Shown here one piece after another: positions 9,636 to 34,063 of a DNA stretch of 64,000 nucleotides. This DNA comes from Escherichia coli (GTDB lineage: Bacteria > Pseudomonadota > Gammaproteobacteria > Enterobacterales > Enterobacteriaceae), in assembly GCF_030384885.1 (NCBI RefSeq), contig NZ_CP128613.1. One strand, given 5' to 3'. The notes under the pieces were generated by a model. It did not search any database. It was given only the letters and a program-made list of their open reading frames with translations, and was not told the DNA's origin. Within the stretch, counting starts at the first letter, position 1, and each line of letters starts with the position of its first letter. The position numbers and the translations under genes are program-made.

Positions 9636-10855
9636 AAATACTGGTCTACGGCATTAACTACTCGCCGGAGTTAACCGGCATCGGCAAATACACCGGCGAG
9701 ATGGTGGAATGGCTGGCAGCACAAGGTCATGAGGTGCGGGTAATTACCGCACCGCCTTACTACCCGCAGTGGCAGGTGGGCGAGAAATATTCCGCCTGGC
9801 GGTACAAACGAGAAGAGGGGGCCGCTACGGTGTGGCGCTGCCCGCTGTATGTGCCAAAACAGCCGAGCACCCTGAAACGCCTGTTGCATCTCGGCAGTTT
9901 TGCCGTCAGCAGTTTTTTCCCGTTGATGGCGCAACGTCGCTGGAAGCCGGATCGCATTATCGGCGTAGTACCAACGCTGTTTTGCACGCCGGGAATGCGC
10001 CTGCTGGCGAAACTCTCTGGTGCGCGTACTGTGCTGCATATTCAGGATTACGAAGTGGATGCCATGCTGGGGCTGGGCCTTGCCGGAAAAGGTAAAGCCG
10101 GCAAAGTGGCACAGCTGGCGACAGCCTTCGAACGTAGCGGACTGCATAACGTCGATAACGTCTCCACGATTTCGCGTTCGATGATGAATAAAGCTGTCGA
10201 AAAAGGTGTGGCGGCGGAAAACGTCATCTTCTTCCCCAACTGGTCGGAAATTGCTCGTTTTCAGCATGTCGCAGACGCCGATGTTGCTGCCCTTCGTAAC
10301 CAACTTGGCCTGCCGGATAACAAAAAAATCATTCTTTACTCCGGCAATATTGGTGAAAAGCAGGGGCTGGAAAACGTTATTGAAGCTGCCGATCGCCTGC
10401 GCGATGAACCGCTGATTTTTGCCATTGTCGGGCAGGGCGGCGGCAAAGCGCGGCTGGAAAAAATGGCGCAGCAGCGCGGACTGCGCAATATGCAATTTTT
10501 CCCGCTGCAATCGTATGACGCTTTACCCGCACTGCTGAAGATGGGCGATTGCCATCTGGTGGTGCAAAAACGCGGTGCGGCAGATGCCGTATTGCCGTCG
10601 AAACTGACCAATATTCTGGCGGTAGGCGGTAACGCGGTGATTACCGCAGAAGCCCACACAGAACTGTGGCAGCTTTGCGAAACCTTTCCGGGCATTGCGG
10701 TTTGCGTAGAACCGGAATCGGTCGAGGCGCTGGTGGAGGGGATTCGTCAGGCGCTCCTGCTGCCCAAACACAACACGGTGGCACGTGAATATGCCGAACG
10801 CACGCTCGATAAAGAGAACGTGTTACGTCAATTTATACATGATATTCGGGGATAA
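9632..10855 (+). CDS. wcaI: Colanic acid glycosyltransferase WcaI (GT4), 407 aa
   Basis: Size and synteny. Confidence 0.85.
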
Positions 10856-12395: not shown

Positions 12396-13766
12396 ATGAA
12401 AAAATTAACCTGCTTTAAAGCCTATGATATTCGCGGAAAATTAGGCGAAGAACTGAATGAAGATATCGCCTGGCGTATTGGGCGTGCTTATGGCGAATTT
12501 CTCAAACCGAAAACCATTGTGTTAGGCGGTGACGTCCGTCTCACCAGCGAAACCTTAAAACTGGCGCTGGCAAAAGGGTTACAGGATGCGGGCGTTGACG
12601 TGCTGGATATCGGCATGTCCGGCACCGAAGAGATCTATTTCGCCACGTTCCATCTCGGCGTGGATGGCGGCATCGAAGTTACCGCCAGCCATAATCCGAT
12701 GGATTACAACGGCATGAAACTGGTGCGCGAAGGGGCTCGCCCGATCAGCGGTGATACCGGACTGCGCGACGTCCAGCGTCTGGCAGAAGCCAACGATTTT
12801 CCTCCCGTCGATGAAACCAAACGCGGTCGCTATCAGCAAATCAACCTGCGCGACGCTTACGTTGATCATCTGTTCGGTTATATCAACGTCAAAAACCTTA
12901 CGCCGCTCAAGCTGGTGATCAACTCCGGGAACGGTGCGGCGGGTCCGGTGGTGGACGCCATCGAAGCCCGCTTTAAAGCCCTCGGCGCACCCGTGGAATT
13001 GATCAAAGTACACAACACGCCGGACGGCAATTTCCCCAACGGTATTCCTAATCCATTGCTGCCGGAATGCCGCGACGATACCCGCAATGCGGTCATTAAA
13101 CACGGCGCGGATATGGGTATTGCCTTTGATGGCGATTTTGACCGCTGTTTCCTGTTTGACGAAAAAGGACAGTTTATCGAGGGCTACTACATTGTCGGCC
13201 TGCTGGCAGAAGCGTTCCTCGAAAAAAATCCCGGCGCGAAGATCATCCACGATCCACGTCTTTCCTGGAACACCGTTGATGTAGTGACTGCCGCAGGCGG
13301 CACCCCGGTGATGTCAAAAACCGGACACGCCTTTATTAAAGAACGTATGCGCAAGGAAGACGCCATCTATGGTGGCGAAATGAGCGCCCACCATTACTTC
13401 CGTGATTTCGCTTACTGCGACAGCGGCATGATCCCGTGGCTGCTGGTCGCCGAACTGGTGTGCATGAAAGGGAAAACGCTGGGCGAACTGGTGCGCGACC
13501 GCATGGCGGCATTCCCGGCAAGCGGTGAGATCAACAGCAAACTGGCGCACCCCGGTGAGGCGATTAATCGCGTCGAACAGCATTTTAGCCGCGAGGCGCT
13601 GGCGGTGGATCGCACCGATGGTATCAGCATGACCTTTGCCGACTGGCGCTTTAACCTGCGCTCCTCCAACACCGAACCGGTGGTACGCCTGAATGTGGAA
13701 TCGCGCGGTGATGTGCCGCTGATGGAAGCGCGAACGCGAACTCTGCTGACGTTGCTGAACGAGTAA
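12396..13766 (+). CDS. cpsG: Phosphomannomutase (colanic acid copy), 456 aa
   Basis: Canonical phosphohexomutase loops TASHNP, DGDFDR, GEMSAH; start set to [14 protein letters not shown] at 12396. Confidence 0.95.
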
Positions 13767-19275: not shown

Positions 19276-20670
19276 ATGCCATTTAAAAAACTCTCCCGAC
19301 GCACCTTCCTGACGGCAAGCTCGGTGCTTGCCTTCCTCCATACCCCTTTCGCCCGTGCAATTCCCGCTCAACAAAGCGTTAACATTAACGACTACAATCC
19401 ACATGACTGGATCGCTTCATTTAAACAAGCCTTCAGCGAAGGGCAAACGGTCGTCGTGCCTGGCGGATTGGTTTGCGACAATATCAACACCGGCATCTTC
19501 ATCCCCCCTGGCAAAACGTTACACATCCTGGGAAGCCTGCGCGGCAACGGCAGAGGGCGATTTGTCTTACAGGACGGCAGCCAGGTGACAGGGGAGAAGG
19601 GCGGCAGTATGCATAACATCACCCTGGATGTGCGCGGCTCTGACTGCACCATTAAAGGGCTGGCCATGAGCGGCTTTGGCCCGGTAACGCAGATTTATAT
19701 TGGCGGCAAAAACAAACGCGTCATGCGCAACCTGACCATCGATAACCTCACCGTTAGCCATGCTAACTACGCTATCTTACGGCAGGGATTTCATAATCAG
19801 ATTATTGGTGCCAACATCACCAACTGTAAGTTCAGCGACTTACAGGGCGACGCTATTGAATGGAACGTGGCGATTAACGACAGTGATATTTTGATATCCG
19901 ACCATCTCATTGAGCGCATTAACTGTACCAACGGCAAAATCAACTGGGGCATCGGCATAGGCCTTGCGGGAAGTACCTACGATAATAATTATCCGGAAAA
20001 CCAGGCAGTGAAAAACTTTGTCGTTGCGAATATCACGGGATCAGATTGTCGGCAACTGATCCATGTTGAAAATGGTAAACATTTTGTTATTCGTAATATC
20101 AAAGCCCGCAATATCACGCCGGATTTCAGTAAGAAAGCAGGCATTGATAACGCGACAGTTGCTATTTACGGTTGTGACAATTTCGTGATTGATAATATTG
20201 AAATGATTAATAGCGCCGGGATGTTAATCGGTTATGGGGTAATTAAAGGCAAATATCTCTCGATACCGCAGAATTTCCGAGTGAATAATATTCAACTGGA
20301 TAATACCCACCTTGCTTACAAATTGCGCGGCATCCAAATCTCCGCCGGGAATGCCGTCTCCTTTGTGGCACTGACTAACATTGAGATGAAGCGTGCCTCG
20401 CTGGAGCTTCACAATAAACCGCAACACCTTTTTATGCGCAATATCAAGGTGATGCAGGAATCCTCTGTTGGACCTGCATTGAGCATGAACTTCGACATGC
20501 GCAAAGACGTTCGTGGCGTGTATATGGCGAAAAAAGAAACACTGCTGTCTCTTGCAAATGTTCATGCGGTGAATGAAAGAGGGCAAAGCTCCGTCGATAT
20601 CGACAGGATTAATCACCATATTGTTAATGTGGAAAAGATTAACTTTAGATTGCCGGAACGGAGGGAGTAG
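19276..20670 (+). CDS. wcaM: Colanic acid biosynthesis protein WcaM (signal peptide, beta-helix-like), 464 aa
   Basis: N-terminal twin-arginine-like signal sequence ([13 protein letters not shown]); last gene of cps operon by synteny. Confidence 0.85.
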
Positions 20671-20844
20671 ATTTGCGACCATTCCTGGAAAAATGGAGCC
20701 ATACTTAGGAACAATGCTACTGCAATCCACAACGAAGCGGCGTAACATCACAAGTAATTCAGTAATCAATTCAGGGTAATTGATGCTGGCGAAAAAAATC
20801 GAACAAGCTATAATTCAGCAACCATTTTACAGGTGGATGAAATA

Positions 20845-21738
20845 ATGACGAATTTAAAAGCAGTTATTCCTGTAGCGGGTCTTGGGATGCATATGTTGCC
20901 TGCCACTAAGGCGATTCCCAAAGAGATGCTACCGATCGTCGACAAGCCAATGATTCAGTACATTGTTGACGAGATTGTGGCTGCAGGGATCAAAGAAATC
21001 CTCCTGGTAACTCACGCGTCCAAGAACGCGGTCGAAAACCACTTCGACACCTCTTATGAATTAGAATCTCTCCTTGAACAGCGCGTGAAGCGTCAACTGC
21101 TGGCGGAAGTGCAGTCTATCTGTCCGCCGGGCGTGACCATTATGAACGTGCGTCAGGGCGAACCTTTAGGTTTAGGCCACTCCATTTTGTGTGCACGACC
21201 CGCCATTGGTGACAACCCATTTGTTGTGGTATTGCCGGACGTTGTGATCGACGACGCCAGTGCCGACCCGCTGCGCTACAACCTTGCTGCCATGATTGCG
21301 CGCTTCAACGAAACGGGCCGCAGCCAGGTGCTGGCAAAACGTATGCCGGGTGACCTCTCTGAATACTCCGTCATCCAGACCAAAGAGCCGCTGGACCGCG
21401 AAGGTAAAGTCAGCCGCATTGTTGAATTTATCGAAAAACCGGATCAGCCACAGACGCTGGACTCAGACATCATGGCCGTAGGTCGCTATGTGCTTTCTGC
21501 CGATATTTGGCCGGAACTTGAACGAACTCAACCTGGCGCATGGGGACGTATTCAACTGACTGATGCCATTGCTGAACTGGCGAAAAAACAGTCCGTTGAT
21601 GCCATGCTGATGACTGGTGACAGCTACGACTGCGGTAAAAAAATGGGTTATATGCAGGCATTTGTGAAGTATGGACTACGCAACCTGAAAGAAGGGCCAA
21701 AGTTCCGTAAGAGCATTGAGAAGTTGCTCGGGGAATAG
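20845..21738 (+). CDS. galF: UTP-glucose-1-phosphate uridylyltransferase-like regulatory subunit GalF, 297 aa
   Basis: GalU/GalF nucleotidyltransferase motif [29 protein letters not shown]; start at 20845 with RBS aggtgg. Confidence 0.9.
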
Positions 21739-21992
21739 ATCCAAGCCAATGTAACAATAATTTAGATAAATAGCGGCAGCTAACATCCCGGCGTCTATGC
21801 TTTAAACAAAGGAATGTTACTGTCGTTTTTCTTTTTAAAACAAAGAATAACAACGAGTTAACCTACTAAGTTTAATCTATTTTTTGTTGGATTTATCCTT
21901 GTTTCTGACAGCATTTGGTAAGACAATTGGCGTTTGAATTTAAGATAGCTTTGCGATAGCTAGCGGGGCGGAGTACATCTTTGGCATTTTGC

Positions 21993-22031
21993 TAGTGCAC
22001 TGGTAGCTGTTAAGCCAGGGGCGGTAGCGTG
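21993..22031 (+). promoter_or_regulatory. JUMPstart element with ops (RfaH-dependent antitermination) upstream of the O-antigen cluster
   Basis: agtgcactggtagctgttaagccaggggcggtagcgtg; ops core ggcggtag at 22020-22027. Confidence 0.85.
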
Positions 22032-22130
22032 GTAAGATTGTGTTTATATGATGCGTTCTCAAAATAAGAAATAATAATCCTGACTATCTTTATACTATTG
22101 ATAATATCTGAAATAAACTTAAGAGCAAAC

Positions 22131-23135
22131 ATGAAAGTAATTGTAAATAATTTTTTTGATGGTATTTTGAAAAGAGGAATACCGATCTATACTTCTGAAC
22201 TTGTGCAAAAGTTAAGAGACAATAATGTTCAGGTTATTTATGTTGCATGTCCAAAAGCATTCCATAAGCTGCCTTCATGGTTTCTGAATGTTCTTTTTAT
22301 AATAGTAGAGCAGCTTTTAATACCAATTATGGGTATATTTTATAGAACTAAGTATAATATATATCCCTATAATAGTAGTTCCATCATTGACTTGTTATTA
22401 GGTAAGGCAATTGTTATAATTCATGACTTCATTAGTCTTAAGAAAAATAAACGAAACCTTGCTGCCATTTATGTGAAAGTCTGTATTTATTTTTCATCTT
22501 TTTTAGCAAAGAAAGTAATATTTATTTCTCAAAGCACTCAGCGAGTATCTAAGAGAATATCGCTATTTAAGCGTATAGAATCTATCCTGCTCCCAAATCC
22601 ATTTTTCTCATTTGAGAAAATTGCTAATGTTACCGAAATAAAAGATCTTGGATATTTACTTCTAGTTTCAGGTTTAGGGGATAATAAGGATCTAGGCACA
22701 GCTCTGGACTATTATTTTTCAATCCCAAGGGAAGAAAGAATACCATTAAAAATATTAGGTTGTGGGAATGGTATTAGCAAGGTTAACGACTTAATTGATG
22801 GGCGGGATACAGATAAAGAAATTGAAATTATTGGTTTTGTTTCTTTAGAGGAAGTCGTCAAACTATATTGTAATTCTAAAATTGTTTGGGCTCATTCGCT
22901 TGCCGAGGGGTATGGCAGGACTTTAGCTGAAGCAAAACTCACATGCAAAAATGTTATATGCACACGGATCTCTGCTTTCCGCGAACAAAAGGATTCGAAT
23001 ATTTTCTTTTATACTTACTATTCTGAGTATTATGAAGTCTATTCATACTTGGTAGATAATTCACCCAGTGTCGAAAGGAAAGCTCTGCATGAACATATTT
23101 TATTTGAAAATGAATTGAGAAAGATTTATGAGTAA
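22131..23135 (+). CDS. O-antigen glycosyltransferase, GT4-like (likely mannosyltransferase), ~334 aa
   Basis: Low-GC ORF; C-terminal E-x7-E-type motif (AHSLAEGYGRTLAEAK); start set to MKVIVNN at 22131 with RBS aagag. Confidence 0.6.
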   Translation: MKVIVNNFFDGILKRGIPIYTSELVQKLRDNNVQVIYVACPKAFHKLPSWFLNVLFIIVEQLLIPIMGIFYRTKYNIYPYNSSSIIDLLLGKAIVIIHDFISLKKNKRNLAAIYVKVCIYFSSFLAKKVIFISQSTQRVSKRISLFKRIESILLPNPFFSFEKIANVTEIKDLGYLLLVSGLGDNKDLGTALDYYFSIPREERIPLKILGCGNGISKVNDLIDGRDTDKEIEIIGFVSLEEVVKLYCNSKIVWAHSLAEGYGRTLAEAKLTCKNVICTRISAFREQKDSNIFFYTYYSEYYEVYSYLVDNSPSVERKALHEHILFENELRKIYE

Positions 23136-24330
23136 TATTGATATAAATAAGAAACAGATATTAGTTTTGACTCCACGGTTCCCATTTCCTGTCATTGGTG
23201 GGGATCGATTACGTATCTATAAGATCTGTAAAGAACTGTCTAAGCATTATGATCTTACGTTGCTGAGTCTGTGTGATAAACGCGAAGAGCTCAACTATGA
23301 ATATGATCGTGAAGTTTTTAGTAGTGTTCACAGAGTATATCTTTCAAAGAAAAAATCTGTTTTAAATGTCATATTCTCTTTGTTTTCAAATACACCCCTA
23401 CAGATTGGGTATTATAAATCTAAAGAATTTGAAGATAAACTTAAGCAGTTATTACCTGAACATTCTGCAACTCTTTCACATTTGATAAGGGTTGGTGATT
23501 ATGTGAAAGAGAATAAAGATATAAATTTTTTAGAGATGACCGATGCCATTTCACTTAATTATAAACGAGTAAAGGAAAAAGCATCTTTATTGAGTTTAAA
23601 AACATTTGTATATTCTTTTGAACAAAAAAGACTCGAACGATATGAGCGAACTATAAATAACAAGTTCAGCTTGACTACTTTGGTATCACAGGTTGACTCC
23701 GATTATTTATATCCAGAGCGTCCGAATAATGTATTAGTTTGTGGAAATGGTGTTGATGCCGTTAGCTTACCTTTTTCAGAACGAAAAATAGCTAAAGATA
23801 AAAAGATAACCCTTGTATTTATAGGTAATTTATATTCTTTGCAAAATATGGATGGTGTGAGATGGTTCACCAAGGAAGTTTTACCATTTCTGAACAAGCA
23901 TGGTAATTTTGAATTTAAGGTCATCGGACGTATTACAGATAAAGATAAGAGTTGGTTAGAAAGCCAGCCTGGCGTTGTTGTCACAGGTGAAGTTGATAGC
24001 ATAACTTATGCAGCAGCTGATGGGCATATTGGTGTGTGTCCTATTAGATTAGGGGCAGGTATCCAAAATAAGGTACTTGAATATATGGCGTTGGGATTAC
24101 CTTGTATATCTTCTACTGTAGGCTTTGAAGGCTTGGGAGCAGAGGAGGGTAAGGAGATTTATGTTGCCAATACAAAAGAAGAATATTTACGTGTATTAAA
24201 TTATTTTATAACAAATCTGGATAAATATACCGAAACAGCATTAGTTGCGAAAAAGTTTATCGATGAGAATTTTTCATGGGAAGCTAAATTGAGCCCATAT
24301 ATCCAGAAAATTAAGGAGTCTGTTAAATAA
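23128..24330 (+). CDS. O-antigen glycosyltransferase, GT4 family, 400 aa
   Basis: GT4 signature region [43 protein letters not shown]; 8-nt overlap with upstream GT. Confidence 0.7.
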
Positions 24331-24331
24331 A

Positions 24332-25747
24332 ATGATTATCCCAATTATTATGGCCGGTGGTTCTGGGACTCGCTTATGGCCTCTTTCGCGTTCGTTATAC
24401 CCGAAACAATTTTTATCATTGACTAATGAAAATAGTTTGCTCCAGGAAACGTTGAAGCGACTTGATGGATTAAATTGTTTGCCTCCTGTCATTGTTAGCA
24501 ATAATGAGCATAGATTTATTGTTGCTGAACAATTGCGACAGTTCGGTGTGGATGACTTCCAGATTATTCTAGAACCTGTAGGTAGAAATACTGCGCCCGC
24601 CGTTGCGCTGGCTGCTCTAAAGGCTCTGGAACTCCATGGCGATCATCATATGCTGGTTCTTGCTGCTGACCATGCTATTCAGGATATTGAAGCCTTCCAT
24701 GCAGCTGTTTTAGCTGCAGAACAAGAGTCCGTTGACAATAAGTTAGTGACTTTTGGCATCGTCCCGACCAAACCTGAAACTGGGTATGGCTATATTAAAA
24801 AGGGCGAACAAGTTAAAAACTCCGTATTTAAAGTAAATTCTTTCGTCGAAAAACCTGATTTAGAAACGGCTAAAAATTATCTCGAACAAAAATGCTATTT
24901 GTGGAATAGTGGTATGTTCATGTTCAAGGCGAGCGTATATTTAGATGAATTGAAAAAATTTCGCCCTGATATTTTAGCAGCGTGTAAAGAGTCGCTTTCC
25001 AGTGCTAGTACTGATCTAGATTTTATCAGATTAAATTCTGATGTCTTTGCAGAATGTCCCGATGAGTCAATTGATTATGCGGTAATGGAAAAAACTCAGG
25101 ATTGTGTAGTTATTCCACTTGATGCTGACTGGAGTGACATCGGATCATGGACATCACTTTGGGAAATATCAGAGAAAGATGAACATGAAAACGTATCGCA
25201 TGGTGATGTAATTAACTATAACAGCAGGAACAACTACATTTACTCTGAAGGTTCACTGATCAGCACTGTTGGAGTTAATAACCTTATTATAGTTCAAACT
25301 AAAGATGCGCTCCTGGTAGCACAGCAAGACAACGTACAAGACATAAAGAAAATTGTCGAAATTCTTAAAAAACAAAAACGTAGCGAACATATATCCCATC
25401 GCGAAGTCTATCGTCCTTGGGGACGTTATGATTCTGTAGAACGTGGCGACCGTTATCAGGTAAAACGTATTACCGTTAAGCCTGGTGAATGTCTCTCAAC
25501 ACAAATGCATCATCATCGAGCTGAGCATTGGGTGGTTGTCGCTGGTACTGCAAAGGTGACTTGCGGCGAACGCACTTATTTCGTCACTGAAAATGAGTCA
25601 ACTTTCATACCAATTGGCACAGTTCATACCTTGGAAAATCCAGGAAAGATACCATTAGAAGTAATTGAGATTCAGTCGGGTGTATATCTAGGTGATGATG
25701 ATATTGTGCGCCTAAGTGATAAATATGGTCGTGTTGAGGATAAATAA
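24332..25747 (+). CDS. manC: Mannose-1-phosphate guanylyltransferase (O-antigen copy), 471 aa
   Basis: [16 protein letters not shown] motif and cupin C-terminus; paralog of cpsB in this window but low GC. Confidence 0.9.
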
Positions 25748-25751
25748 TTAT

Positions 25752-27173
25752 ATGAATATTACCAATGATGTAATTAAAAATAGCGGAATTGCATTTGGTA
25801 CAAGTGGTGCTCGTGGATTAGTGAAAGATTTTACACCCAACGTGTGTGCTGCATTCACTTATGCTTTTATCGATGTAATGATGAAGGATTTTTCTTTTAA
25901 AGAGGTTGCGCTCGCAATAGATAATCGCCCAAGCAGCTATGCTATGGCACAAGCTTGCGCAGCAGCATTGTTGGAATGTAGTATTAAACCTATTTACTAC
26001 GGTGTAATTCCAACTCCAGCTTTGGCAAATCAAGCGATTGCCGATGGGATTCCTGCAATAATGGTTACTGGAAGTCATATTCCATTTGATAGAAATGGTT
26101 TGAAATTCTATCGTCCAGACGGGGAAATTTCAAAAGAAAATGAGAACAGCATTATACATGCTGAAAAAGAATATCCTGATGTAACTGTATTGCCAGAATT
26201 ACAATGTTCAAAGCGTGCCGCTGATACTTATATCGAGAGAAACACTTCAATTTTTTCAAATATATTTAAAGGTAAACGTATCGGGATTTATGAACATTCA
26301 AGTGCGGGACGGGATCTTTATCCAGAAATATTCAGTAAGCTTGGTGCTGAAGTTGTAAGTATTGGTAGAAGTGATGAGTTTGTGCCTATTGATACTGAAG
26401 CAGTATCAAAAGAAGATGAAGAAAAAGCTTTACACTGGTCATCTGAGTATGACCTCGATATGATTTTTTCTACCGATGGTGATGGCGATCGTCCTTTGGT
26501 TGCTGACGAAAATGGCGTTTGGTTACGGGGTGATATATTAGGACTATTTTGCTCAAAGGCAATGAATATTGAAGCGGTAGCTGTACCTGTAAGTTGTAAT
26601 ACGGTTATTCAGACCTGCGGGTGGTTTAATCATGTAACGCTGACTAAAATTGGTTCACCATACGTCATTTCAGCGTTTGATTCTCTGAATAATAGTTTTG
26701 ATAGTGTTGCAGGGTTTGAGGCTAACGGTGGGTATCTTTTAGGTAGCGATGTAAATTATAACAGCGGTATGATTAAAGCGCTTCCAACAAGAGATGCTGT
26801 TTTGCCTGCTTTAATGGTACTGGCACTGGCTATAAAAAATAATGTGACTATTTCAAAACTTTTGGCGGAGTTGCCACCACGATTTACCTATTCAAATAGA
26901 GTTCAAAATTTTGCAACAAGCAAAAGCAAAAGCATTATCGCGTCAGCTCAAGAAAATCCTCAAGAATTTATCGAAAGAATAGGCTTTGTCGACCTTCATG
27001 TACAATCGGTGGATACAATTGACGGGTTAAGATTGACACTAAGTGATGGTTCAATAATCCATTTGCGACCGTCAGGCAACGCACCTGAATTGCGATGCTA
27101 TGCAGAAGCAGATAACATAATAAAAGCTGAGAAATTAGTGTTAGAAATTTTGCATAAAGTTACTCTTTTGTAA
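25752..27173 (+). CDS. manB: Phosphomannomutase-like alpha-D-phosphohexomutase (O-antigen copy), ~473 aa, divergent from cpsG
   Basis: Phosphohexomutase loops present but atypical: TGSHIP (phosphoserine loop), DGDGDR (metal), GFEANGG (sugar), RPSGNAPE (phosphate); start set to MNITNDV at 25752. Confidence 0.75.
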
Positions 27174-27356
27174 AAAAATATAAACTTTTTTCTACTCTTG
27201 AGCGGTTTGTCATTGAACCGCTCAGTAATAGATTATTTTTAACTTGTTTATATTTAGCATTGGTGTTTTTATTTGCGTTCATCCCGAATAAGAGATTGTA
27301 AAATTAACTGTTTCTTGTTTTTCAAATGAGTTACTTCACTAGCAAAGCTAATTACT

Positions 27357-28688
27357 ATGCATAAGCAATATTATTCATTATTGTGCAATAAAATACAGTT
27401 TAAACATCTGGCTATATATTTTTCTGTATTTCTTTCACTATCCTCATGTTTCTTGTGGGGAGGGGCGGATACATTTGTATCGCAAGTGTATATTGATATT
27501 TTAGCCACTATATCTACAGCTCTATTAGTTATTTTGATGTTCTATTATTATATTAATAGAGTTCGCTATTTATCACTAACCTTACTTTTTGCATTCGTTT
27601 TTTCTTTGATTATTGGTTTGCCATCGATTTATCTTTACTATTTTAAAAACGCAAATCATGGGTTTGAAATAATTTGTATCTGGGGGATGTTGATCAATTC
27701 CATCCTTTACTTGCAAACAACAGAGACTGTCATAAAAGAAGAAAAAAGATATTTAACTAGTTTATTTTATATTTTGTTTTCTATTGTTGCACTGTGTCAA
27801 TTATGCAAAATATTAATTTATCTTATGTTTATATTGAATTCAGGAGAAGGGCATTTAGCAATTTATACTGAAAGCGAAGAATTGCTATCCCAAGTTCCAT
27901 TTTTTATTCGTGCTATTAGTGGTTTTGCAGTTGTAATGTCATTGTCCACTTTTTATTTTAAAACACCGACCTACATTAAAGTTATTGCATTTATTTTACT
28001 TGCATCTGATTTAGCTATTGGAATACGTAATAAGTTTTTCTTTTCAGTGATTTGTATTTTTATACTATATATGTACTCTAATGAGTATAGAGTAAGGAAT
28101 TTATTTAAGCAGCTCTCAAAACCAATATTTCTCATCGCGGGTTTTTTATGCTTCTCGATGGTATCGTATTTCCGTGAAGGGTACCAAATCGATTTTATGA
28201 ATTATATTGGCATTGTTTTAGATTCGCTATCCTCTACTCTTGGGGGGATGCAGAATTTGTTTGATATGCAATCATCAGGATGGGATCAACTTCATCCCGC
28301 TGTGGTATTCACACAAGTATTACCGCTAAGCGGTCTTGGTTTTCTTGATGATCAACAAATCGCAAAAGATTTTTCAATAATTGTTTTAGGTGATGTATCC
28401 TCTGGTATTGCGTTGTCATCTTCAGGATTGTTAGAGTCATCGTTGCTGAGTCTAAATTTGGGAGTGATTATTTATTTACTGTATTTATCAGGGGTGATGC
28501 TATTTATTAAATGGGGACTAAATAATCAACGGATAATAATAAACTTTGTTGCCATCTCCATGATATCTGGATTTTTTTATGCTGTTCGTGGTGAACTGAT
28601 TTTGCCATTGGCTTTTCTTCTAAAATCATTGCCGATTGTTCTTATATCTCCATTACTTGTTAAAAATAAAATTTATCATGGTCAGTAA
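27357..28688 (+). CDS. wzy: Putative O-antigen polymerase Wzy (polytopic membrane protein), 443 aa
   Basis: Very hydrophobic, low-GC, poor RBS, lies next to wzx in the O-antigen cluster; assignment by elimination. Confidence 0.55.
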   Translation: MHKQYYSLLCNKIQFKHLAIYFSVFLSLSSCFLWGGADTFVSQVYIDILATISTALLVILMFYYYINRVRYLSLTLLFAFVFSLIIGLPSIYLYYFKNANHGFEIICIWGMLINSILYLQTTETVIKEEKRYLTSLFYILFSIVALCQLCKILIYLMFILNSGEGHLAIYTESEELLSQVPFFIRAISGFAVVMSLSTFYFKTPTYIKVIAFILLASDLAIGIRNKFFFSVICIFILYMYSNEYRVRNLFKQLSKPIFLIAGFLCFSMVSYFREGYQIDFMNYIGIVLDSLSSTLGGMQNLFDMQSSGWDQLHPAVVFTQVLPLSGLGFLDDQQIAKDFSIIVLGDVSSGIALSSSGLLESSLLSLNLGVIIYLLYLSGVMLFIKWGLNNQRIIINFVAISMISGFFYAVRGELILPLAFLLKSLPIVLISPLLVKNKIYHGQ

Positions 28689-28729
28689 GTGGTTTATTTT
28701 TCGACCAGGATCTCACCAGTAGGCATGAC

Positions 28730-29965
28730 ATGATCAAAGAAATTTTCTCCGATGGCATTTTTTCGCTATTTAATAAAATATGTTACTTCGGTTTTAAAAC
28801 ACTTGCAATAATTCTGATTACTCGTTCCTTAGGAGAAGATGTAGGCGGAGAGTTCATTTTTTTAGTTGGTTTTCTCGAAGTCCTTCGGGTGGTTACTGAT
28901 TTTGGTGTGGATCTGTTTGTTATAAAAAAATATAATGATTCTACAGATAAAATAAAACTATTAAATGTAACGTTTGCACAAAAAATTCTTTCTGGAGTAA
29001 TTGTTTCACTACTGTTTTGTTTGTATTCTTTTGTTCATGGTTATCAATATAATGTCTATATTCCTATTGTGTTAGCCTTACCTGTTGCTTTATTTTTTAA
29101 TTTCTCAAATAGCTATTTTCAATCTCTCAATTCCAATAAATCCCTCACGTTTCCGATCGCAATTGCATCTATTGCAACGTGTACGATCTTCGCTATTCAG
29201 TATTTTTTAAACGTTAAATTTAACGCATGGGATTACCTGTGTGTTGAACTATTATTCGTATCGCTGGTTACACTAAAACTATTCGTTAGTGTCAAGTTTA
29301 GGTTTATTAGAACGTCAGCTTTTGATGTGCTAATGTCAATTCTTTCTTTATATAAATATACATTAAGTATAGGTCTTACAGCTGTTGTTGTAATTATTTA
29401 TAGCCGTGTAGATAATTTTTATCTCAAGACATTTGCCCCAGGGGATCTTGCAGCATATGGCCAGATATTTAGGATGGTTGATCCACTGGTTATGGTTTCT
29501 TCTGTATTTTCTACAGTTGCCTATGCAAGATTTTGCCGAATTAACTTACAAGAAAAAAATGCTTTTACTAAGGTGTTTCAGTTCCTGTTATGTATTGTGG
29601 CATATGGCGTGCTGAGTTCATTAGTTTATTTCTTTATAATAAAATACCTGGGTCATTTTGTGTTGATTTCTAATGTTAATAATGATTTCTTGATAATGAT
29701 GTTCTTGATTGTTGCATGTGTGAAATGTATCAATGGTGGTACAACTGCAATAATTCAGTCACAGGGGTTTTATAAAGTGGGTTTGTATGTTTCGTATGTT
29801 TGCATTTTGACATCGATACCAACTATGTATTTCTTAATAATGAAGTACGGTGTTAAAGGTGCTGCTATGACGATTCTGCTTGTAGAGTGTATTAGTTTCA
29901 TATTACTTCTCTGCAGCTTTTTTATGATAAAAAAGATGCGTCCTAAAAAAACATTCGAAATGTAA
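28730..29965 (+). CDS. wzx: Putative O-antigen flippase Wzx, 411 aa
   Basis: N-terminal region LAIILITRSLGEDVGGEFIFLVG...DFGVDLFVIKK parallels the wzxC N-terminus (LARIIDNHQFGLLTV...DFGIANSIIQRK); about 12 hydrophobic segments. Confidence 0.65.
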   Translation: MIKEIFSDGIFSLFNKICYFGFKTLAIILITRSLGEDVGGEFIFLVGFLEVLRVVTDFGVDLFVIKKYNDSTDKIKLLNVTFAQKILSGVIVSLLFCLYSFVHGYQYNVYIPIVLALPVALFFNFSNSYFQSLNSNKSLTFPIAIASIATCTIFAIQYFLNVKFNAWDYLCVELLFVSLVTLKLFVSVKFRFIRTSAFDVLMSILSLYKYTLSIGLTAVVVIIYSRVDNFYLKTFAPGDLAAYGQIFRMVDPLVMVSSVFSTVAYARFCRINLQEKNAFTKVFQFLLCIVAYGVLSSLVYFFIIKYLGHFVLISNVNNDFLIMMFLIVACVKCINGGTTAIIQSQGFYKVGLYVSYVCILTSIPTMYFLIMKYGVKGAAMTILLVECISFILLLCSFFMIKKMRPKKTFEM

Positions 29966-30117
29966 TCAATGAGTCCTCTTTGAATAGAATTAGTTTGTTC
30001 TATTTATGAACACTTAGCTTGAGTAAGTTCTAACATAGATTACTAATTGTTTGATACTATCTGCTTTACAAGCATAACCGCGTATGTCGCGGTGACCACA
30101 CCTGACAGGAGTATGTA

Positions 30118-31524
30118 ATGTCCAAGCAACAGATCGGCGTCGTCGGTATGGCAGTGATGGGGCGCAACCTGGCGCTCAACATCGAAAGCCGTGGTTATAC
30201 CGTCTCCGTCTTCAACCGCTCCCGCGAAAAAACTGAAGAAGTTGTTGCCGAGAACCCGGGTAAGAAACTGGTTCCTTATTACACGGTGAAAGAGTTTGTC
30301 GAGTCTCTTGAAACCCCACGTCGCATCCTGTTAATGGTGAAAGCAGGTGCAGGCACGGATGCTGCTATTGATTCCCTCAAGCCATACCTCGATAAAGGTG
30401 ACATCATCATTGATGGTGGTAATACCTTCTTCCAGGACACCATTCGTCGTAACCGTGAGCTTTCTGCAGAAGGCTTTAACTTCATCGGTACCGGTGTTTC
30501 CGGCGGTGAAGAAGGTGCGCTGAAAGGACCTTCCATTATGCCTGGTGGGCAGAAAGAAGCCTATGAACTGGTTGCGCCGATCCTGACCAAAATCGCCGCC
30601 GTTGCTGAAGATGGCGAACCGTGCGTTACCTATATCGGTGCTGATGGCGCAGGCCATTATGTGAAGATGGTTCACAACGGTATTGAATACGGTGATATGC
30701 AACTGATTGCTGAAGCCTATTCTCTCCTGAAAGGCGGCCTGAATCTCTCTAACGAAGAACTGGCACAGACCTTTACCGAGTGGAATAACGGTGAACTAAG
30801 CAGCTACCTGATCGACATCACCAAAGACATCTTCACTAAAAAAGATGAAGACGGTAACTACCTGGTTGATGTGATCCTGGATGAAGCGGCTAACAAAGGT
30901 ACTGGTAAATGGACCAGCCAGAGCGCGCTGGATCTCGGCGAACCGCTGTCACTGATTACCGAGTCTGTGTTTGCCCGTTATATCTCTTCTCTGAAAGATC
31001 AGCGCGTTGCCGCGTCTAAAGTTCTCACTGGCCCGAAAGCGCAGCCAGCAGGCGATAAGGCTGAGTTTATCGAGAAAGTTCGTCGTGCGCTGTATCTGGG
31101 CAAAATCGTTTCTTACGCTCAGGGCTTCTCTCAGCTACGCGCCGCGTCTGAAGAGTACAACTGGGATCTGAACTACGGCGAAATCGCGAAGATTTTCCGT
31201 GCTGGCTGCATCATCCGTGCGCAGTTCCTGCAGAAAATCACCGATGCATACGCCGAAAATCCGCAGATCGCTAACCTGCTGCTGGCTCCGTACTTCAAGC
31301 AAATTGCCGATGACTACCAGCAGGCGCTGCGTGATGTCGTTGCTTATGCTATACAGAACGGTATCCCGGTTCCGACCTTCGCCGCTGCGGTTGCCTATTA
31401 TGACAGCTACCGTGCCGCTGTTCTGCCTGCAAACCTGATCCAGGCACAGCGTGACTATTTCGGTGCGCATACTTATAAGCGCATTGATAAAGAAGGTGTG
31501 TTCCATACTGAATGGCTGGATTAA
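30118..31524 (+). CDS. gnd: 6-phosphogluconate dehydrogenase (decarboxylating), 468 aa
   Basis: N-terminal [20 protein letters not shown]-binding motif; size; position downstream of the O-antigen cluster. Confidence 0.97.
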
Positions 31525-33085: not shown

Positions 33086-34063
33086 ATGAGAGTAGAAAAT
33101 AATAATGTTTCTGGGCAAAACCATGACCCGGAACAGATTGATTTGATTGATTTACTGGTCCAACTATGGCGTGGCAAGATGACTATCATCATTTCCGTCA
33201 TTGTGGCTATTGCCCTGGCTATTGGATATTTGGCAGTAGCGAAGGAGAAATGGACGTCAACAGCAATTATCACTCAGCCCGATGTGGGGCAAATTGCTGG
33301 CTATAACAATGCCATGAATGTTATCTATGGTCAGGCTGCACCGAAAGTATCGGATTTGCAGGAGACGTTAATTGGTCGCTTCAGTTCTGCCTTCTCTGCA
33401 TTAGCAGAAACGCTGGATAATCAGGAAGAACCAGAAAAACTTACCATCGAACCTTCTGTTAAGAACCAGCAATTACCATTGACTGTTTCTTATGTTGGGC
33501 AAACTGCAGAGGGCGCACAAATGAAGTTGGCCCAATACATTCAGCAAGTTGACGATAAAGTGAATCAAGAGCTAGAAAAGGATCTCAAGGACAACATTGC
33601 TCTGGGACGGAAAAACTTGCAGGACTCTTTAAGAACACAGGAAGTGGTTGCGCAGGAACAGAAAGATCTGCGTATCCGTCAAATTCAGGAAGCGTTGCAG
33701 TATGCGAATCAGGCGCAGGTGACAAAGCCACAGGTTCAGCAGACTGAAGATGTGACGCAAGATACGTTATTCCTTTTGGGTAGCGAAGCGCTGGAGTCGA
33801 TGATTAAGCACGAGGCGACCCGTCCGTTGGTGTTCTCGCCAAACTACTATCAGACTCGTCAAAACCTGCTGGATATCGAAAACTTAAAGGTTGATGATCT
33901 TGATATTCATGCTTACCGTTATGTGATGAAACCGACGTTACCTATTCGTCGCGATAGCCCGAAAAAGGCAATTACCTTGATTCTGGCGGTGCTGCTGGGC
34001 GGCATGGTTGGCGCGGGGATTGTGTTGGGGCGTAACGCTCTGCGTAATTACAACGCGAAGTAA
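33086..34063 (+). CDS. wzzB: O-antigen chain-length determinant WzzB (Cld), ~325 aa
   Basis: N-terminal TM, periplasmic coiled-coil region, C-terminal TM with G-rich LLGGMVGAGIVLG; start at MRVENNN. Confidence 0.9.
   Translation: MRVENNNVSGQNHDPEQIDLIDLLVQLWRGKMTIIISVIVAIALAIGYLAVAKEKWTSTAIITQPDVGQIAGYNNAMNVIYGQAAPKVSDLQETLIGRFSSAFSALAETLDNQEEPEKLTIEPSVKNQQLPLTVSYVGQTAEGAQMKLAQYIQQVDDKVNQELEKDLKDNIALGRKNLQDSLRTQEVVAQEQKDLRIRQIQEALQYANQAQVTKPQVQQTEDVTQDTLFLLGSEALESMIKHEATRPLVFSPNYYQTRQNLLDIENLKVDDLDIHAYRYVMKPTLPIRRDSPKKAITLILAVLLGGMVGAGIVLGRNALRNYNAK

Follow-up and report, generated by a model that had tools for sequence, protein, structure and literature searches.

The O-antigen locus of an Escherichia coli cryptic clade I chromosome is very probably a known O77-group gene cluster

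The O77 group of Escherichia coli, also referred to as Iguchi Gp9, OG9 or O77g, comprises the serogroups O17, O44, O73, O77 and O106. The five reference O-antigen clusters of this group differ among themselves by less than 1% (PMC7685785), and the same paper gives their backbone as ->6)-a-Man-(1->2)-a-Man-(1->2)-b-Man-(1->3)-a-GlcNAc-(1-> and reports that one transferase adds two of the mannoses (PMC7685785). Diversification of the group by gtr genes has been described (PMC7685785; PMC4379981; PMC4732683), with some members bearing two glucose branches (PMC4732683). The same four-sugar backbone is reported, in one paper and in the title of another, for Salmonella enterica O:6,14 (group H) (PMC4732683; Wang et al., 2007), a different species that is likened here by its published backbone and not by its gene cluster. 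In Shigella flexneri, serotypes likewise arise on a common backbone when prophage-borne gtrA and gtrB act with a type-specific gtrC that adds glucose, although the backbone there is Rha3-GlcNAc, as opposed to Man3-GlcNAc in the O77 group. The classical sites of the S. flexneri gtr phages are argW and thrW. The mannan cluster of E. coli O9/O9a (manC, manB and WbdA/B/C) shares with the O77-group cluster the GDP-mannose genes and a mannosyltransferase that transfers more than a single mannose, whereas O9 is a homopolymer made by the Wzm/Wzt ABC-transporter route and the O77-group cluster builds a GlcNAc-containing repeat by the Wzx/Wzy route.

The stretch of DNA analysed here, a window of 64 kb, shows 4 differences to the chromosome of the STEC strain 2013C-4282 (cryptic clade I, NZ_CP027579.1). 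Between galF (20845..21738, + strand, placed by the PGAP annotation of this near-identical record) and gnd (30118..31524, + strand, likewise from PGAP) lie six co-oriented genes on the + strand, in the order glycosyltransferase, glycosyltransferase, manC, manB, wzy and wzx. Their coordinates are those of the first-pass annotation, and with a GC content of 34.7% for 22098-29965 against 50.3% in the rest of the window, its description of an AT-rich six-gene O-antigen block at this site is borne out. When an 8.5-kb segment (21700-30200), reaching from the end of galF through the cluster to the beginning of gnd, served as a megablast query, the match to NZ_CP027579.1 was 100.0% (rounded, with one SNP within the query at window position 27993), and about 90 other genomes, including that of the O17 reference strain K12a, matched at 99.3%. 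The cluster of K12a (O17:H18) lies at the same site and agrees in its six genes, their order and their lengths, with nucleotide identities of 99.08-99.70% per gene, and its wzy and wzx carry the same PGAP names. The wzy-wzx pair was found in 93 of 5,426 complete E. coli genomes, and 2013C-4282 itself has been typed in silico as clade I, OG9 (O17/O44/O73/O77/O106):H45 (PMC10100065 supplement). The block is almost certainly the known O77-group O-antigen cluster, carried here by 2013C-4282 or by a near-identical isolate, and nothing that was found speaks against this identity. The locus had been described at first as being of unassigned serogroup, a reading that fails because wzy and wzx are 99.25% and 99.60% identical to the alleles of a characterised serogroup (O17 K12a) and bear the family names in PGAP. 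Genoserotyping takes an identity of at least about 98% to a reference wzx/wzy allele as its criterion; the first-pass annotation had itself named identity above 98% as the mark of a known cluster, and this is what was found.

The locus is thus an ordinary, already well-characterised cluster, and its value lies in typing rather than in discovery. On its own it cannot separate O17, O44, O73, O77 and O106, and calls that use only wzx and wzy should therefore name the group as a whole (O77g/OG9). Its clinical relevance stems from ST69 uropathogens and the O77g:H18 STEC HUS outbreak of 2025 in France (PMC13188871). No gtr genes are present in the window. The chromosome of 2013C-4282 has one gtrAB-like locus only, a gtrABC cassette between ybhB and ybhC (positions 1827009-1829749 of NZ_CP027579.1), whereas the two sites familiar from S. 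flexneri are devoid of gtr genes in this strain, argW holding only an intS remnant and thrW only an integrase fragment. Three types of gtrC occupy this one prophage slot at ybhB-ybhC, and all three are nearly confined to genomes with the O77-group cluster. O17 K12a carries type 1 and the O44:H18 strain 042 (NC_017626.1) type 2; neither is present in 2013C-4282, as judged by a chimeric-query megablast for the former and at the sensitivity of megablast for the latter. Type 3 is the one found in 2013C-4282, and every carrier of it (24/24) also has the O77-group cluster; one Salmonella protein falls into the same 90%-identity cluster as type-3 GtrC. Since the types track the O17 and O44 reference strains and are nearly confined to carriers of the cluster, gtrC typing could sharpen in-silico serogrouping inside the O77 group.

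Which member of the group the strain represents depends on the state of its type-3 gtrC. The copy in 2013C-4282 has a 1-bp deletion, A7 as opposed to A8 in the aligned intact copies (C4, ST3), in a poly-A tract at codons 6-8, and the resulting frame runs into a stop after 17 codons; the other 21 type-3 copies were taken to be intact from the length of their matches (1,512 bases, compared with the 1,511-base query). The leading reading, tentative as it is, holds that this frameshift inactivates the sole gtrC and that the unbranched O77 antigen is expressed. It is based on the deletion and early stop in a chromosome with a single gtrAB-like locus and neither the O17-type nor the O44-type gtrC, and 471-aa forms of type-3 GtrC on 8 other contigs speak in its favour. 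However, the missing base belongs to a homopolymer in an assembly built from long reads and may reflect a mistake of sequencing, and restart at a TTG would yield a 471-aa protein that lacks only 17 residues, the gene being annotated as intact by PGAP. It is also possible, and ranks second in our assessment, that a functional type-3 GtrC gives rise to a glucosylated form, O73 or O106. Such a form would fit the complete gtrA-gtrB-gtrC cassette, the restriction of type 3 to genomes with the cluster, as expected of a modifier of its backbone, and the assignment of types 1 and 2 to K12a and 042. Against this stand the frameshift and the fact that type 3 leads to O73 or O106 by elimination only, since a reference genome for neither serogroup was identified in the genome collection; moreover, the two-branch members of the group (PMC4732683) imply that one cassette may not equal one serogroup. 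Judged from the sequence, the serogroup would be an unbranched, O77-like one if the frameshift is real, and otherwise possibly O73 or O106. We consider it unlikely that the poly-A tract acts as a slipped-strand switch between unbranched O77 and a glucosylated serogroup, but if it did, this would be a phase variation of gtr cassettes unlike the Dam/OxyR switch, the known phase-variation mechanism of such cassettes in Salmonella. That the strain belongs to O17 or O44 is very improbable: the O-antigen cluster is common to both, but the gtrC of K12a and that of 042 are each absent from the chromosome at megablast sensitivity, and this assignment was rejected on gtrC type.

Nothing but its clade-I allele sets the O77-group cluster described here apart from the known one. 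This allele is a distinct one, about 0.7% from the reference, and of the 93 carriers 2013C-4282 is the only one with a match of about 100%. In a SNP map against O17 K12a, a low-divergence tract extends over 21691..30317, with about 0.7% divergence from the allele of E. coli sensu stricto, while the flanks in the clade I chromosome diverge by 4-6%; dense flank differences stop at 21690 and resume at 30318. The galF gene is 96.0% identical to that of K12a at the nucleotide level, its protein accession nevertheless being the same in both strains, and gnd is 95.6% identical, its first 200 bp being without differences. The tract would appear to be the unit of horizontal exchange. Within the cluster the most divergent stretch is the spacer between manB and wzy (27174..27356, + strand, 183 bp), with 6 differences per 183 bp to K12a, and Wzy has several amino-acid changes relative to the reference allele; a V213I change is private to the copy in the window. 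A new, unassigned O serogroup could be read into this non-identity, which amounts to about 59 differences in the 8.6-kb tract, and into the failure of wzx to match any curated NCBIfam model. Such a reading is highly improbable given that all genes are 99.1-99.7% identical to those of the O17 reference strain, that PGAP puts wzy and wzx in a known family, that the published typing is OG9, and that the five reference clusters themselves show differences of less than 1% (PMC7685785).

The gene content of the O77-group cluster agrees with a Wzx/Wzy pathway, and the cluster is of a type other than that of K-12. The six-gene block contains none of rml, gmd and fcl, as had been proposed, gmd and fcl being located upstream in the colanic-acid cluster. 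The assignment to the Wzx/Wzy pathway is upheld by the Pfam matches of both membrane proteins (PF01943 and PF14296), by the proximity of wzzB (33086..34063, + strand, PGAP annotation), whose product acts together with Wzy and regulates O-antigen chain length, and by gene content, no wzm or wzt being present in the O-antigen cluster. An ABC-transporter-dependent mannan of the O8/O9 kind, which the mannose-only gene content (manC, manB, transferases) might suggest, was rejected on gene content and is hardly credible, since wzx and wzy are present, wzm and wzt are absent, and the repeat described in the literature is a heteropolymer with GlcNAc (PMC7685785).

The first glycosyltransferase (22131..23135, + strand, 334 aa) is a candidate for the first mannosyltransferase. 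PGAP names it simply 'glycosyltransferase' and starts it at 22131, whereas the longest open reading frame opens at a TTG at 22098; it matches PF00534 (E=1.9e-10), has only weak NCBIfam matches and an EX7E motif at residues 259-267, and is 99.70% identical to its counterpart in O17 K12a. The second (23128..24330, + strand, 400 aa), a candidate second mannosyltransferase that PGAP calls 'glycosyltransferase family 4 protein', scores 211 bits with TIGR03087, which is under the cut-off, shows no EX7E motif in the C-terminal domain and is 99.25% identical to that of K12a. A PDB sequence search with both transferases returned nothing at E<=0.01. GT4 enzymes in the CAZy classification are retaining, whereas formation of beta-Man-(1->3)-GlcNAc from GDP-alpha-Man requires an inverting enzyme. 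It is for this reason doubtful that both transferases belong to GT4, as had been assumed; the PGAP name of the second protein agrees with that assumption, but the first is not so named and the inverting step is a misfit. The count of only two transferases stands, yet it does not imply an extension by two sugars, as one of them reportedly adds two mannoses. Downstream, manC (24332..25747, + strand) encodes a mannose-1-phosphate guanylyltransferase/mannose-6-phosphate isomerase for GDP-mannose synthesis (TIGR01479, 756.6 bits, cut-off 373). ManC and CpsB, the latter from the colanic-acid cluster that the window also contains, are 59% identical in amino acids. The phosphomannomutase gene manB (25752..27173, + strand, PGAP name) starts at an ATG in PGAP, while the longest frame runs from a GTG at 25716. 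ManB is of a type distant from CpsG of the same window (24% identity), and its closest solved relative is the phosphomannomutase 4hjh (E=9e-96).

From published work on the cluster and standard Wzx/Wzy biology we have drawn a scheme for the assembly of the O antigen. RfaH at ops would carry transcription from upstream of JUMPstart through the low-GC operon, ManB and ManC would make GDP-mannose, and WecA, which is encoded elsewhere, would load GlcNAc-1-P onto undecaprenyl phosphate. One transferase would then add the beta-1,3 mannose and the other the two alpha-1,2 mannoses, the division of labour between them being conjectural. Wzx would flip each Man3-GlcNAc across to the periplasmic face, where Wzy is expected to polymerise the units through an alpha-GlcNAc-(1->6)-Man bond to a chain length set by WzzB. 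Outside the cluster, a prophage gtrABC cassette adds glucose side branches in the periplasm, and these determine whether the product is O17, O44, O73, O77 or O106. The genes had led to the prediction of a short repeat of mannose built on GlcNAc as primer, and the published Man3-GlcNAc unit (PMC7685785) bears it out.

Ahead of the block lies a JUMPstart element of 39 bp (21993..22031, + strand) with 2 mismatches to the consensus; the scan gave this one match in the sequence and 0/100 in shuffled sequences. It contains the ops octamer GGCGGTAG, read directly at 22020-22027, and the element noted there in the first reading is therefore real. JUMPstart/ops is the signal for RfaH-dependent antitermination, which would act here on the operon that follows. 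The manB-wzy spacer has a hairpin with an 8-bp stem (27200-27223) that the consensus scan did not call a terminator, and in the same scan of 21700-30200 promoter and terminator sites were no more numerous than in shuffled sequence.

The O-antigen polymerase gene wzy (27357..28688, + strand) is placed by its PGAP name in the O17/O44/O73/O77/O106 family and matches PF14296 at E=5.7e-4; with TIGR04370 it scores 33.6 bits, under the cut-off of 40, and its family call leans mainly on the identity of about 99% to the K12a allele. The gene for the O-unit flippase, wzx (28730..29965, + strand), has a PGAP name of the same family and matches PF01943 at E=9.5e-7. NCBIfam gave no match for wzx and a sub-threshold one only for wzy; weak family matches are usual for such highly divergent proteins. 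A Kyte-Doolittle scan finds 8-14 hydrophobic segments in Wzy and 10-12 in Wzx, and the original calls of both genes, for which many membrane helices were anticipated, stand. The exact Wzx protein is present on 556 public contigs.

The O-antigen genes between galF and gnd (21993-29965), which the first-pass annotation had left without a serogroup, belong to a known cluster. A megablast search of 5,426 complete E. coli genomes with window positions 21700-30200 returned a full-length match to NZ_CP027579.1, the record of STEC strain 2013C-4282, at a reported 100.0% (rounded, since one SNP is present), and about 90 further genomes matched at 99.3%. In all matching genomes the last two genes carry the PGAP name "O17/O44/O73/O77/O106 family O-antigen polymerase/flippase", and the six genes are 99.08-99.70% identical to those of the O17:H18 reference strain K12a. 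Because identity to a characterised serogroup exceeds 98%, the level that the first-pass annotation itself had named as marking a known cluster, the locus counts as already described. As a discovery it is of little interest. Its type of wzy-wzx pair is found in 93 of the 5,426 genomes. Strain 2013C-4282 is a stx1a-positive member of cryptic clade I, typed in silico as OG9 (O17/O44/O73/O77/O106):H45 (PMC10100065 supplement). Only this strain matches the allele among complete genomes, and the exact proteins of the allele occur on >500 public contigs. Four single-base differences separate the window from the record in 64 kb (20522, 27993, 54738 and 61868); at all four the window has A or T and the record T or G. 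The one at 27993 gives Wzy V213I in the window, the residue being V in 2013C-4282 and K12a alike.

Both the ORFs of the window and the RefSeq features of the near-identical record agree with the six-gene content originally proposed, all on the plus strand: glycosyltransferases of 334 aa (22131-23135) and 400 aa (23128-24330), manC (24332-25747), manB (25752-27173), wzy (27357-28688) and wzx (28730-29965). The block is preceded by galF (20845-21738) and followed by gnd (30118-31524), ugd and wzzB (33086-34063). The low GC content of the block also held up (0.347 vs 0.503 in the remaining window), as did the JUMPstart/ops element: the 39-bp JUMPstart at 21993-22031 has two mismatches to the consensus, was matched by 0 of 100 shuffles and contains the ops sequence GGCGGTAG at 22020-22027. 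A second exact copy of this ops-like octamer lies at 10618-10625 inside wcaI; a total of two over 64 kb is compatible with chance (mean 1.2).

The gene calls and the Wzx/Wzy pathway read from them were right. On a Kyte-Doolittle scan both membrane proteins are multi-segment, with 10-12 hydrophobic segments in Wzx and 8-14 in Wzy; Wzx matches PF01943 and Wzy, weakly, PF14296. ManC matches TIGR01479 at 757 bits, and the two ManC/CpsB proteins of the window are 59% identical. The window also encodes two phosphomannomutases, the O-antigen ManB and the colanic-acid CpsG (12396-13766), that share just 24% identity. ManB is closest to phosphomannomutase PDB 4hjh and resembles GlmM-like mutases rather than CpsG; it is unusual for E. 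coli. The first transferase matches PF00534 and is the only one of the two with an EX7E motif, and sequence searches found no solved relative of either. That there are two transferases stands, but placing both in GT4 is questionable: members of that family are retaining enzymes, and a beta-mannosidic bond needs an inverting one. The five serogroup clusters are >99% identical to one another and specify a common backbone, ->6)-a-D-Man-(1->2)-a-D-Man-(1->2)-b-D-Man-(1->3)-a-D-GlcNAc-(1->, in which two mannoses are added by one transferase of the cluster; O77 is unbranched, and the remaining four bear glucose side branches added by gtr genes located elsewhere, in most cases on a prophage (PMC7685785; PMC4379981; PMC4732683). 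The predicted GlcNAc-primed short mannose unit was thus right in kind, although two transferases still build a three-mannose extension. The same backbone occurs in Salmonella O:6,14 (PMC4732683). The first glycosyltransferase shares a 90%-identity protein cluster with a Citrobacter portucalensis protein, and the protein cluster of one GtrC (type 3, below) is represented by a Salmonella enterica protein, which suggests that backbone genes and backbone modifier both circulate beyond Escherichia.

Compared with K12a, the window diverges by about 0.7% across 21691-30317 and by 4-6% in wcaL, wcaM, most of galF, gnd and ugd, with sharp steps close to where galF ends and some 200 bp inside gnd. Judged from this profile, the steps probably mark the limits of recombination around the O-antigen cluster. 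The pattern fits whole-cluster exchange by homologous recombination into the divergent clade I chromosome, a reading that also agrees with the reported scatter of the same cluster across phylogroups (PMC4379981). Positions 20665-21098 (434 bp, comprising the wcaM-galF spacer plus ~250 bp from the start of galF) show zero differences from K12a. Within the cluster, divergence from K12a peaks in the manB-wzy spacer (27174-27356), with 6 differences in 183 bp; it holds a hairpin with an 8-bp stem, GAGCGGTT...AACCGCTC (27200-27223), where a consensus scan called no terminator.

No gtr genes lie within the 64-kb window. Classical integration sites of gtr-bearing phages are the argW and thrW tRNA genes; in 2013C-4282 these sites hold no gtr genes and only integrase fragments (81161-82170 and 2432034-2432278 of NZ_CP027579.1). 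To query single genomes within the large collection, the window wzy-wzx was joined to a test gene, so that the strain's record stayed at the top of the matches, and matching places were counted per record. With K-12 gtrAB, one extra locus each appeared in 2013C-4282 and K12a, and none in several other carriers. The cassette of 2013C-4282 (record 1827009-1829749) lies outside the window, in a decayed prophage that sits between ybhB and ybhC (1827009-1838958) with tail/baseplate genes, an IS3 insertion, a truncated integrase, gtrA, gtrB and gtrC. In other cluster carriers an identical GtrA is followed in this slot by other gtrC genes, giving three unrelated genes in one slot (retrieved loci L008 7001-9763, L009 6001-8749 and L011 1260-4001). 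Type 1 (K12a, many ST69 strains) was found at 35 places, 33 of them in cluster carriers; type 2 (O44:H18 strain 042, LP26-E1-261) in 12 genomes, 10 of them carriers; and type 3 (C4, ST3) in 24 genomes, all carriers. Outside cluster carriers the types are almost never seen (2, 2 and 0 genomes), and they track this O-antigen cluster. Together with the clade-I allele and the sharp recombination boundaries, the three types in one prophage slot are by-products of typing value only.

Since 2013C-4282 lacks types 1 and 2 and has type 3, it is, by gtrC type at megablast sensitivity, neither O17-type nor O44-type. Its type-3 gtrC has A7 in the poly-A tract of codons 6-8 vs A8 in the aligned intact copies of C4 and ST3 (the other 21 copies being judged intact from match length), and this 1-bp deletion brings a stop after 17 codons. 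A genuine deletion predicts an unbranched, O77-like strain; an assembly error in the homopolymer would leave O73 or O106 as possibilities, reached purely by elimination. PGAP annotates this gtrC as a 471-aa remnant with a TTG start, and 471-aa versions of type-3 GtrC are also present in other public assemblies.
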